Positions 1,350 to 50,695 of a stretch of DNA of 64,000 nt are shown here, piece after piece. Each line of letters starts with the position of its first letter. The stretch's first letter is position 1. The notes beneath the pieces are model-generated. The model was not told the DNA's origin. It ran no database searches and saw only the letters and a list, made by a program, of their open reading frames with translations. The stretch is taken from contig JAHPZH010000001.1 of NCBI GenBank assembly GCA_019058315.1, forward strand, positions 535,536 through 599,535. The letters run 5' to 3'. A program made the translations under genes and the position numbers. This DNA comes from Candidatus Helarchaeota archaeon. GTDB taxonomy: Archaea; Asgardarchaeota; Lokiarchaeia; Helarchaeales; RDOG01.

Positions 1350-1997
1350 GTGCTTAAAATAAATTCTGACGAAAATCTCGGAAAAGTTACAATTGAAAAA
1401 TCAGCACTTCAAAATGCATTAAGTCATGTAGCAGAATATGGAAATTTTAGGCTTCCTCGCCGTAAATGGAAGGAAGTGTACGGGTTACTAATTGGAAAGT
1501 TAAAAAATAATAATTTAATTGTAAATAATGCATTTCCAATGACTCATGGTAGTTCGATATTTGTTGAATTTGAAAAAGAACATTACATTCTTGCAGCAGA
1601 AATTAATGAGATTATTGCTGAAAATGGTGATTTTTTTGTTGGCTGGTATCATTCACATCCTGGTTTAGGATTTTTCTTATCAGGAACCGATGTTTTAACT
1701 CAATTAGGATTTCAAGACGTAAATCCTCATGCAATAGCAATTGTTTTTGATCATAAAGAATTAGAAAGGGAAAATGAAACATTTACAATCTTCCGTTTAC
1801 ATAATACGTCGGAAGGAATTTTATCTAATTACTATGTTGTAGATTATGAACTCAATGGTTTAGAGAATGAATCAGAGTTAGAATTTATAGAAAAAATATA
1901 TTATAAAATAACTCATTCTTTAGAAACTAAAAAAATCAGAAAAGTAGAAAGCACAGCAAGGAATAATATTGAAAAATGGCTTAAGTTAGAAGATTAA
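1350..1997 (+). CDS. MPN/JAMM (Rpn11/Mov34-like) metalloisopeptidase
   Basis: KEVYGLLIG (catalytic Glu) and VGWYHSHPGLGFFLSGTD (JAMM HxH-x7-S-x2-D). Confidence 0.88.
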   Translation: MLKINSDENLGKVTIEKSALQNALSHVAEYGNFRLPRRKWKEVYGLLIGKLKNNNLIVNNAFPMTHGSSIFVEFEKEHYILAAEINEIIAENGDFFVGWYHSHPGLGFFLSGTDVLTQLGFQDVNPHAIAIVFDHKELERENETFTIFRLHNTSEGILSNYYVVDYELNGLENESELEFIEKIYYKITHSLETKKIRKVESTARNNIEKWLKLED

Positions 1998-47916: not shown

Positions 47917-48264
47917 TTAATATCCATGATTCAACAGATAAATTAAAGGTATATCTTCAAACTTTCCATCAGGAAGTTTTCTACGTATTGTTATAGGTAA
48001 TAATCTATTTTCAAGTTCCATTTCAGCAATTTGGATTGGATCTTTAATGTCTGGAATTTCATCTAACAGAATTGGAGCTGACATAGAGATTTGTAAAGCT
48101 CTAGCTCCAATAATTCTTGCCCTCTCGTATTTAGTTAAGTGAGAAGGTCCAATTTCTATCTTAAATTTCTTCCTTTTCTCTTCTAATGGTATAGATGGTT
48201 CTTCTATTAGCTCCTCTTCGCTCTTGATCTCTTTTTTGGTCTTTTTTTTCGATTTTTTAACCAT
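47917..48264 (-). CDS. rpoK: DNA-directed RNA polymerase subunit Rpo6 (K)
   Basis: [22 protein letters not shown]...IAEMEL...[12 protein letters not shown]. Confidence 0.95.
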
Positions 48265-48479: not shown

Positions 48480-50141
48480 TTAATTTTTTAAAAAATCAGA
48501 AGAACTTAACCGGATTGTACCTTGGATCAATCCTTTATTTAACATTTCATTTAAGAGCTTTTCTGCAAATTTTTCTGTTATGTTTAAAGTCTTCGCTATT
48601 AAAGAAAAAGGAATGTTTTTATAACGTTTTATAAGATTTGAGATCGCTCTATATGTCGATTCTTCATGTAGGAATGTTCCAGCATCGATATCAAAAAAAA
48701 TCTTCTTAAATTTATCTTTTTTCTCAAACATCTCAATTAAAATTTCTTTAACAACAAATTGAGAATAATTTAAATGATTTGCGATCTGCTCTATTGTCAC
48801 TATTGGAGATTTTTTTATCATCTTTTCAACTTCTATACCAAAATCATCTATAATCGAAGGGATTTCCTTTTGAAACGATTTCTTTATTCCTTTAATTTTC
48901 CATTTTACTTTATGAAAATCAGAACTAGTGCCTAACTCAGGATCATCTAATCTAAATATTTCAAAACCTAGAAATTCTTCAGTAATTTTAGTGAAATCAA
49001 ATACCAATGCTATGGCCTTTGGATTTAAATTTTGATATCCCAATTGGTTTAATCTATCTGTAGGTGATAAAAATAAACCTAGGCCGGGGTGTGAATGATA
49101 CCAACCAACCGTAAAATATCCCTTTTCAACTGCCATTGAGTCATATTCAGCTGCCTTTAAATAATGTTCCTCTTCAAAGGCAACTTCGAATTTCTCACCT
49201 GAAGTGATAGGAACTGAATCAAAAATTATCAAATCCTCATCTTTTAATTTTCCGATTAAAAGACCATATGTCTCTTTCCAATCTTCCCGTTTAATATCAA
49301 AATTTGCGTAAAACATTGTATGCAATAAAATATTTCTAAAAGAATCTAAGTTTAAAATGACTGTTCCCTTTTCTTCTACTGTTACTTTTGTTAAGTGAAG
49401 TTGTTCTTCAGGAACATACTTAAACAGAACATTATGGAATAAACTTATAAGAATGGCCTGAAAAGAGGGTCCAGAAAATGATAAATTGCTTGATTCTGCT
49501 TCAATTGTTTGAAGATTCCGTCTAGCCTCTTCAATATTGCCCTTTAATATATTATTAATAAAATTAAATATTGTTAACCCCAATCCAGTTATTTTATTTA
49601 ATTTAATTAAGTCCTCTATTTTATTCATTATATCTTTGGCACTTTCAGGTATTTCGAGTAAAAGATCAATTATTGCTATGAAACTATCATAAATAGTAGC
49701 ACGCTCATAAATATATTTCTGCAGAACGGAATCCTCCATTTCCGCCCTTTTATTAGTGAATTCTTTAGCTTTTTGAAAAAATCTTATCGAGTTTAAATAA
49801 TCCGGAGTCCCTTCTTTGGGATTTAATAAACATGTCGCTAAATCTATACAACAATTTGCAATTTTTTCATATTTATCTTTTAAGTCTAATTGACCTTTAG
49901 TGTAAGCATTAATTGCATTTTGATAGCATTTTATTGCTTTAGCATATTCTTGGATTTCCACAAAACAAGCTGCCGCTCTAAATAAACTATCTCCAATTTC
50001 GGTTTTAGGATCTTCAACATCTGAAGTCTTTTCAATTTCTAAAGCGGCTTTTAAATAGTTCTTTATAGCTTCTTGGAAATTTCCATTAATTTCGTATGCT
50101 CTACCTTGCTCCTTATATTCCATTATATGGCTATCCCACAC
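48480..50141 (-). CDS. TPR/alpha-SNAP-like, MPN/JAMM and winged-helix (PCI-like) fusion protein
   Basis: N-terminal EAIKNYLKAA / FRAAACF / KAIKCYQNA; KETYGLLIG...GWYHSHPGLGLFLSPTD; C-terminal IPFSLIAKTLNITEKFAEKLLNEMLNKGLIQGTI. Confidence 0.82.
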   Translation of the reverse strand: MWDSHIMEYKEQGRAYEINGNFQEAIKNYLKAALEIEKTSDVEDPKTEIGDSLFRAAACFVEIQEYAKAIKCYQNAINAYTKGQLDLKDKYEKIANCCIDLATCLLNPKEGTPDYLNSIRFFQKAKEFTNKRAEMEDSVLQKYIYERATIYDSFIAIIDLLLEIPESAKDIMNKIEDLIKLNKITGLGLTIFNFINNILKGNIEEARRNLQTIEAESSNLSFSGPSFQAILISLFHNVLFKYVPEEQLHLTKVTVEEKGTVILNLDSFRNILLHTMFYANFDIKREDWKETYGLLIGKLKDEDLIIFDSVPITSGEKFEVAFEEEHYLKAAEYDSMAVEKGYFTVGWYHSHPGLGLFLSPTDRLNQLGYQNLNPKAIALVFDFTKITEEFLGFEIFRLDDPELGTSSDFHKVKWKIKGIKKSFQKEIPSIIDDFGIEVEKMIKKSPIVTIEQIANHLNYSQFVVKEILIEMFEKKDKFKKIFFDIDAGTFLHEESTYRAISNLIKRYKNIPFSLIAKTLNITEKFAEKLLNEMLNKGLIQGTIRLSSSDFLKN

Positions 50142-50167: not shown

Positions 50168-50695
50168 TCAAAATTTTGTAATTAACAATTTTGCTAATTC
50201 TGTAAATGCTTCATCTACTTTATCACCGGTTTTTGCAGAAGTCTCTATAAAACCGTGAGCATTAATTCTTTTTTGAAGTTTTAATCCATCTTCTTTTGTA
50301 ACTTCCTTATTTGGTAAATCCATTTTATTAGCAACAAGTATTGTTTGAAATTTTGGTTCTTTAACGTATTTATCTAATTCGTCCATCCATCTTTGTTCTA
50401 TCTGATTATATGTAGATTTTCGTGTAACGTCGTAGACAATTAATGCACCTTGTGCGCCTTGGAAATAAACATCTTGCATTTGACTCCATCTATCGTCACC
50501 AGCTAAATCCCATAATGTTAGCTTAATTCTATTGCCCTTTAATTCTATATTTTTTAAATAAATATTAGCGCCCATTGTGCTTTTATATTCCTCAGAAAAT
50601 TTCTCAGTTACATATTTTTTGACTAATGAAGTCTTACCTACAGCGGGCTGTCCAATTATACTGATTTTGAAAACATAAAGCGGTAATTTACTCAT
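50168..50695 (-). CDS. Rab-like small GTPase
   Basis: GQPAVGKTS, YKSTMG, WDLAGD, NKMD, ETSAK. Confidence 0.92.
   Translation of the reverse strand: MSKLPLYVFKISIIGQPAVGKTSLVKKYVTEKFSEEYKSTMGANIYLKNIELKGNRIKLTLWDLAGDDRWSQMQDVYFQGAQGALIVYDVTRKSTYNQIEQRWMDELDKYVKEPKFQTILVANKMDLPNKEVTKEDGLKLQKRINAHGFIETSAKTGDKVDEAFTELAKLLITKF

Follow-up and report, generated by a model that had tools for sequence, protein, structure and literature searches.

In the proteasome lid, the COP9 signalosome (CSN) and eIF3, PCI and MPN domains reside on separate subunits, and we know of no account of how the partnership between these two kinds of subunit originated. This question is raised anew by a gene at 48480-50141 (-) in a stretch of 64,000 nucleotides from contig 3 of a Candidatus Helarchaeota archaeon (hereafter the window), whose product combines in a single chain a helical-repeat arm resembling tetratricopeptide repeats (TPR), an MPN domain with a JAMM zinc site, and two winged helices, the second of which (WH2) resembles the winged helix of PCI subunits. 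What does such a protein do, and does it have any bearing on the ancestry of the eukaryotic complexes? As outlined in the following, it is probably a soluble, zinc-dependent JAMM isopeptidase for ubiquitin or a ubiquitin-like modifier, which would supply its own scaffold and dock partners, the additional link to a small GTPase being graded lower. MPN proteases with a complete catalytic site (MPN+) are already known; what is new is the union of a TPR arm, an MPN+ domain and two winged helices in one chain, for which a literature search retrieved no describing paper.

The host genome comprises 5.8 Mb on 12 contigs and is about 94% complete, and the window has a G + C content of 30%. The open reading frame (ORF), which is open from a GTG at 50141, was confirmed as real. 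However, translation likely starts at the ATG at 50123 instead of the GTG, which would add six residues, because the database entry P0002 (547 aa, 100% identical to the target protein) and all orthologues begin at MEYKEQ. The coding sequence would accordingly extend over 48480..50123 (-) and comprise 547 codons plus stop, and residues are numbered here from the Met encoded at 50123. All close relatives of the protein come from Helarchaeota/Lokiarchaeota metagenome bins, several genomes keep the full-length ORF at 35-86% identity, and some relatives have already been annotated publicly as "PCI domain-containing protein" or "Mov34/MPN/PAD-1 family protein".

With respect to catalysis, the MPN/JAB domain (residues ~250-412; 48888..49376, -) is of the MPN+ type according to Pfam, searches of the PDB, Foldseek and VIA-align. 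It scores 43.5 bits against Pfam JAB (PF01398; cut-off 22.5), and its JAMM motif E...HSHPGLGLFLSPTD is complete, consisting of the catalytic E284 (codon 49272..49274, -), which aligns with E76 of CSN5, and the zinc site H343-S-H345-x7-S353-xx-D356 (49056..49097, -) as read from the sequence. In alignments of 10 full-length and 27 total relatives these E, H, H, S and D residues are invariant, and since this holds for every catalytic residue a pseudo-enzyme (MPN-) scaffold can be rejected. In a sequence search of the PDB the domain matched Caldiarchaeum Rpn11 at 2.7e-14, CSN5 at 4e-9 and Rpn11 at 7e-9, AMSH-type enzymes being weaker at about 1e-5. In line with this, Foldseek matched the domain with Rpn11 (E 5.6e-8, TMt 0.70-0.77), and VIA-align superposed it on Rpn11 with Z 16.0 and a root-mean-square deviation (rmsd) of 3.6 Å over 152 residues, and on the Caldiarchaeum subterraneum homologue (CsRpn11, PDB 6fjv/6fnn) with Z 15.4. 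The target thus has the MPN fold and complete JAMM site in common with Rpn11, CSN5 and CsRpn11, of which CsRpn11 is a demonstrated deubiquitinase (PMC6043591). It differs from CsRpn11, a bare domain, by the addition of the TPR arm and the two winged helices, and from Rpn11 and CSN5, which require PCI subunits as separate chains as well as an MPN- partner and end in bundle helices, by carrying arm and winged helices in the chain itself; no gene for an MPN- partner is evident near the target.

A full-length AlphaFold (AF2) model computed from 27 relatives (predicted local distance difference test, pLDDT, 83.5) consists of 12 helices (residues 1-241), the alpha/beta MPN domain (~250-412) and two small alpha/beta units that follow a long helix (415-438), while its predicted template modelling score (pTM) of only 0.59 leaves the arrangement of these domains relative to each other unfixed. 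The arm (residues 1-241; 49401..50123, -), for which pLDDT is mostly above 90, has the right-handed helical-hairpin repeat fold as judged structurally by VIA-align, with the TPR domain of LGN as a match (Z 17.3, rmsd 2.3 Å over 153 residues) along with gamma-SNAP (Z 16.5), KLC2 (16.4) and p67phox (14.7). On residues 9-130, Pfam TPR_12 (23.9 bits, cut-off 30.1) and SNAP (22.9 bits, cut-off 25) stayed just below threshold, and several relatives do carry precomputed TPR family matches. Helical repeats have a high background of structural matches and no sub-type can be assigned, so that on the model the solenoid is best described as a generic TPR/SNAP-like repeat. A helical arm preceding a JAMM domain is also reminiscent of AMSH/STAMBP and Sst2 (MIT + JAMM), which are likewise single-chain JAMM deubiquitinases with an N-terminal helical targeting domain, and faint MIT matches do occur in the arm of the target's relatives. 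However, the MPN domain of the target is nearer to Rpn11/CSN5 than to AMSH (7e-9 vs 1e-5), and whereas AMSH has a three-helix MIT domain and no winged-helix tail, the target has a TPR solenoid of 12 helices.

The tail (residues 413-547), when folded alone (AF2; pLDDT 87.6, pTM 0.78), forms two complete winged helices, each with the order H1-b1-H2-H3-b2-b3. The first (WH1), which together with the long helix covers residues 415-486 (48666..48881, -), is of a generic winged-helix type without a Pfam PCI match and is kept in 484-aa relatives that lack WH2. By contrast, WH2 (residues 487-547; 48483..48665, -) is of the PCI type according to Pfam, VIA-align and Foldseek. Pfam PCI (PF01399) matches residues 485-537 with 37.2 bits in the full protein and 41.3 bits in the tail alone (cut-off 22), a model that also matches in two control prokaryotes, which is a caveat as to its specificity; the runners-up in the tail are eS25 (27.2 bits) and Rrf2 (21.9), all others being lower. 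Among 48,161 representative chains compared with WH2 by VIA-align, matches were obtained with CSN2 (Z 10.9, rmsd 1.1 Å over 62 residues, 26% identity), CSN3 (Z 10.9, 4.8 Å over 102), DDRGK1 (Z 10.7, 1.2 Å over 59), the PCI domain of CSN4 (Z 10.4, 1.3 Å over 65), the 26S proteasome chain 22mm_a (Z 10.3, 1.2 Å over 62), PCID2 (Z 9.5, 1.4 Å over 62) and CSN7 (Z 9.5, 1.2 Å over 62). Foldseek likewise placed WH2 on CSN2 and CSN4 at rmsd 0.8-1.2 Å and 23-28% identity. Hence, the last 60 residues of the target match the winged-helix subdomain of PCI subunits such as CSN2, CSN3, CSN4, CSN7, chains of the 26S lid and of eIF3, and PCID2, the values for CSN2, CSN4 and the 26S proteasome chain being rmsd 1.1-1.4 Å and 21-28% identity. 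An earlier note on this DNA, made from the letters and their translations, had proposed helical repeats of TPR/SNAP type, an intact JAMM motif and two winged-helix segments, the last of them PCI-like; all four elements are present, far beyond chance, and only the start had to be moved from the GTG to the ATG.

As winged helices are the commonest DNA-binding fold in archaea, the tail might instead bind DNA, with the MPN and TPR parts serving as a sensory or regulatory module of a DNA-binding regulator. The tail does have weaker Pfam matches to Rrf2, HTH_24, MarR and others, and DNA-binding winged helices appear among the structural matches of WH2 from Z 9.5 downward, mostly at rmsd 1.7-2.8 Å. 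However, on WH2 the PCI family scores at least 14 bits above every DNA-binding family, and the top folds are winged helices of scaffolds that do not bind DNA. In addition, the presumed recognition helix of either winged helix has a net charge between -3 and +2 and lacks a conserved basic surface, and the net charge of the tail drifts from -11 to +7 among orthologues, which argues by inference against conserved DNA binding. The earlier note had itself considered that the tail might match only generic DNA-binding helix-turn-helix domains; as it turned out, PCI, DDRGK1, UFL1 and eS25 score better, and we regard a DNA-binding regulator as highly improbable.

Nevertheless, resemblance to the winged helix of PCI subunits does not amount to a PCI domain. 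The latter consists of a helical-repeat subdomain fused directly to a winged helix, after which a bundle helix usually follows. In PCI subunits the helical repeat thus stands directly before the winged helix, whereas the solenoid of the target is placed 250 residues before it, on the far side of the MPN domain. The chain of the target runs from the solenoid (1-241) through MPN (250-412) and WH1 to WH2, so that MPN and WH1 separate the arm from WH2. No helical-repeat subdomain directly precedes WH2, its place being taken by a complete winged helix, nor is there a bundle-forming C-terminal helix, as the chain of the target and of all orthologues ends no more than four residues past the last strand. 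Could the arm represent the missing helical half? Matches of the arm to chain 8amz_Q of the 19S proteasome (Z 13.9) and to CSN1 (Z 12.6) do exist; these scores, however, are lower than those of generic TPR proteins (Z 16-17) and fall within the helical-repeat background. With a winged helix before it, nothing after it and the solenoid on the other side of the MPN domain, WH2 is, judged on the model, not a PCI domain in the full sense and corresponds to the winged-helix subdomain only.

When the two winged helices are taken as a unit, the best Foldseek match is the UFL1-DDRGK1 array of the UFM1 ligase (PDB 8b9x, 8ohd, 9gy4; E 1.3e-5 to 1.4e-4, TMq 0.57-0.69, 127-135 alignment columns), with 8b9x at E 1.3e-5 and 9gy4_E at TMq 0.69, followed by CSN2 (7.7e-4), SelB, ESCRT-II and eS25. 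In a search of 1.84 billion representative proteins, a library without protein names, the profile of the family tail retrieved four representatives of the family, followed by 89 proteins containing 2-12 winged-helix repeats; among the 60 of these multi-winged-helix proteins that were scanned, PCI was matched in 42, E3_UFM1_ligase in 29 and DDRGK (PF09756) in 25. No eukaryote-like PCI subunit architecture was singled out among the matches in this nameless library. The nearest relatives of the tail are therefore multi-winged-helix proteins matching PCI, E3_UFM1_ligase and DDRGK, and within the host genome they are UFL1-like ORFs of this kind and not RING-PCI proteins. Pfam E3_UFM1_ligase (PF09743) itself stays below threshold in the tails of the family (best E 0.002, 5/9 members). 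A UFM1 pathway as the cause of these matches was considered and rejected, since a search of the ~94%-complete genome yielded no UFM1 gene and the only UFC1-like (UFM1 E2) match, in a 176-aa ORF (G000:C3:664556-664798, +), remains sub-threshold at 21.9 bits. The likeness of the tail thus concerns the class of scaffold and not the pathway.

In the host genome, 20 PCI-profile matches fall in about 17 ORFs, and seven ORFs encode MPN domains, the target alone combining both. The other PCI-like winged helices are fused, for instance, to HEAT, TPR and RING domains in one protein of 835 aa and to RING-H2 in another of 312 aa, or to LRR, VWA, WD40 and ABC ATPase domains, and they also occur in UFL1-like arrays (loci L016, L019, L020, L022, L025, L026, L027 and L030 on G000 contigs). 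This range of partners suggests a role for the PCI-like winged helix as a shared docking module connected with the ubiquitin system. In a published survey, HTH/PCI and TPR are listed among the accessory domains of Asgard ESCRT-linked proteins only (Makarova et al. 2024, PMC10936438). A far more ambitious reading would have the winged helices dock the JAMM deubiquitinase with RING E3 ligases and with HEAT/TPR, WD40, LRR and VWA receptors in a GTPase-controlled machine that writes and erases ubiquitin, which would be the prokaryotic equivalent, and perhaps a relative, of lid, CSN and eIF3; we consider this unlikely.

A related proposal is that PCI-type winged helices join edge to edge, with copies of the same protein or with other PCI-like proteins, in the manner of the lid/CSN/eIF3 horseshoe, into a simplified lid- or CSN-like particle ancestral to or homologous with the eukaryotic complexes. 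That MPN+ and a PCI-type winged helix share one chain speaks in its favour, as do the about 17 ORFs with PCI-like winged helices, several of them fused to RING or to repeats of the substrate-receptor type. Against it stand the lack of contiguity between solenoid and WH2, the missing bundle helix, and the fact that, within the genome, the tail is most closely related to UFL1-like and not to RING-PCI proteins. The phylogenetic distribution is narrow as well. In a class-wide survey of 121 genomes, comprising seven from the order of the window (Helarchaeales) and 114 from other orders, TPR-MPN-WH proteins were found in 7/7 genomes of the former, whereas the 114 others yielded MPN matches only and none with this architecture. 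Some MPN proteins of other Lokiarchaeia gave alignments reaching to residues 520-535, and in these Pfam and the hidden Markov model of the tail found no winged-helix tail. Both winged helices are present in four of the seven genomes (the host, G008, G012 and G002), while the other three, which belong to one family (G004, G006 and G010), encode TPR-MPN-WH1 proteins without WH2.

In a tree of MPN domains, in which the midpoint root was set for drawing only, the TPR-MPN-WH family forms one group (support 94/88) beside a clade of operon-linked Asgard MPN proteases with a coiled coil (95/85). Proteins without WH2 cluster in a single clade (100/100) that nests among WH2-bearing lineages, with only moderate support for inner nodes, and this nesting suggests a four-part ancestor of the family and a single loss of WH2. 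One lineage has thus dropped WH2 while keeping the remaining domains, which is again at odds with a particle held together by it. Given its distribution in one order and the position of its MPN domain beside the operon-linked clade, the fusion derives, as judged from sequence comparison, from an Asgard deubiquitinase encoded in an operon and is specific to its lineage, not a relic predating the lid. Of the proto-lid or ancestral-like scaffold proposed in the earlier note, therefore, the presence of an MPN+ domain and a PCI-type winged helix within a single polypeptide has held up, and its ancestral character has not, the distribution check that the note had called for having returned the architecture solely in the window's own order (7/7 vs 0/114 other genomes). 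We accordingly judge a lid-like particle improbable.

The nearest paralogue further illuminates this origin. The MPN domain of the target is 58% identical to that of a 472-aa protein on contig 6 of the same genome, which follows genes for an E2-like protein, an E1 and an E2 and belongs to the neighbouring clade of proteases encoded after E1/E2 genes (P0031-P0051; MPN 46-58% identical to the target). Proteins of this clade carry a C-terminal apolipoprotein-like coiled coil instead of the TPR arm and winged helices, and the contig-6 copy lies inside a ubiquitin-system operon, whereas the target lies outside one. Genes for ubiquitin, E1, E2 and RING proteins are arranged in three clusters in the host genome, ubiquitin precursors being encoded on contigs 2 and 10. 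The contig-6 locus (L052, G000:C6:265800-271200) encodes an E2-like/RWD protein (235 aa), an E1 (409 aa), an E2 (172 aa), the MPN + apolipoprotein-like coiled-coil protein (472 aa) and, convergently, a second ThiF-type E1; no match to the ubiquitin profile was seen on contig 6. On the minus strand of contig 2 (L051, G000:C2:150000-157400), genes for a ubiquitin-like protein (117 aa), an E1 (406 aa), an E2 (175 aa) and a JAB protein (267 aa) are co-oriented, and the run continues with a 423-aa protein having a weak RING match, a Ras-family GTPase (195 aa) and a 293-aa protein without family match. Two further MPN proteins may be mentioned here. A small MPN/JAB ORF (~204-217 aa, JAB 57 bits) is located in the window itself at ~1383-1997 (+) and shares 43% identity with the MPN domain of the target. 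Another of 461 aa bears an N-terminal AN1-type zinc finger (L035, G000:C1:368853-370238, -), a domain which in eukaryotes has been linked to proteasome and p97 stress pathways.

Since the target does not adjoin ubiquitin, E1 or E2 genes, it might also be a protease for another modifier of the SAMP/Urm1/ThiS type, or serve peptide maturation unrelated to tagging. SAMPs are known substrates of archaeal JAMM proteins encoded outside ubiquitin operons, such as the haloarchaeal desampylases, and the target has a weak NCBIfam desampylase match (12.5 bits). However, its nearest paralogue, at 58% identity, is encoded in an operon with an E1 and a UQ_con-type E2, and its best matches in sequence and fold are of the Rpn11/CSN5 type and not of the desampylase type, so that there is only a small chance, in our estimation, of this alternative being correct. 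The reading as an isopeptidase for ubiquitin or a ubiquitin-like modifier is therefore retained.

Immediately upstream of the target, 44 nt before its ATG, lies a gene for a Ras/Rab-like small GTPase of 175 aa (50168..50695, -; Pfam Ras 163 bits). Orthologous GTPases (64-77% identity) occupy the same upstream position in three other genomes with spacers of about 20-30 nt, the MPN proteins of these genomes being 67%, 41% and 37% identical to the target, and the gene is, on this conserved arrangement, a probable operon partner. The GTPase of the window has an Asp in place of the catalytic Gln of switch II (WDLAGD), whereas its three orthologues keep WDLAGQ; its P-loop, NKxD and SAK motifs are intact, and a C-terminal Cys for prenylation is absent. 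TPR domains can be effectors of GTPases, for which p67phox and Rac are a precedent, and the fold match of the arm to p67phox (Z 14.7) may be taken as a parallel for a coupling between arm and GTPase by analogy only. A predicted complex of target, GTPase, GTP and Mg scored 0.00, which gives no verdict and is evidence neither way. The Ras-like GTPase of the contig-2 ubiquitin operon is 38% identical to that of the window, and this operon represents a second JAMM-GTPase linkage in the genome. Downstream of the target, at a distance of 215 nt, lies a gene for the RNA polymerase subunit Rpb6/RpoK (47917-48264, -), and the order GTPase, TPR-MPN-WH, RpoK and GNAT acetyltransferase is seen again in two other genomes (L036, L037).

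Several observations weigh against the reading as a self-scaffolded, GTPase-linked ubiquitin isopeptidase. Apart from the unfixed domain arrangement in the full-length model, Pfam PCI is matched by just 6/9 family members, and PCI-type winged helices exceed DNA-binding ones by about one Z unit. In addition, when the family tail profile was compared with PDB sequences, PCI subunits were non-significant (CSN2 E ~0.5) and the winged helix of eS25 was best (4e-5 to 6e-3), and sequence profiles alone therefore fail to establish PCI membership. Moreover, the target gene lies outside the ubiquitin operons, the AT-rich spacer of 44 nt could hold a promoter of its own, and the GTPase neighbour is missing at the P0015 locus and beside the 484-aa relatives without WH2. 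Beside the latter (L049:2334-3998, L050:2287-3900) a conserved gene for a 537-554-aa protein without Pfam match is found directly upstream, with a gap of only 2 nt in L049, and might encode an alternative partner. Full-length orthologues without the GTPase (P0011/P0015 branch) share a convergent downstream gene for a protein of ~580-800 aa, also without Pfam match (L047:2547-4322, L048:187-1923, L040:7776-10187).

Taken together, the JAMM isopeptidase would remove the archaeon's own ubiquitin or ubiquitin-like modifier from proteins, with the targeting parts being carried in the same chain as the catalytic MPN domain. The TPR-like solenoid would bind a partner or substrate, and the pair of C-terminal winged helices, the last being of the PCI/DDRGK1 type, would serve as a module for protein docking or oligomerisation and would not bind DNA. 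The enzyme probably originated within the Helarchaeales when a copy of the MPN protease of an E1-E2 operon gained accessory domains; it is probably co-expressed with the upstream Ras-like GTPase and may be recruited or switched by it.

The narrow distribution is a warning against taking the fusion itself as ancestral. What the Helarchaeales do provide is an intact catalytic domain of the Rpn11/CSN5 type combined with a PCI-type winged helix in a single archaeal polypeptide that is small and expressible. This makes it testable whether PCI-type winged helices were already docking modules of the ubiquitin system in Asgard archaea, what an Asgard deubiquitinase encoded outside the ubiquitin operon acts upon, and whether small GTPases of these organisms may control ubiquitin signalling.

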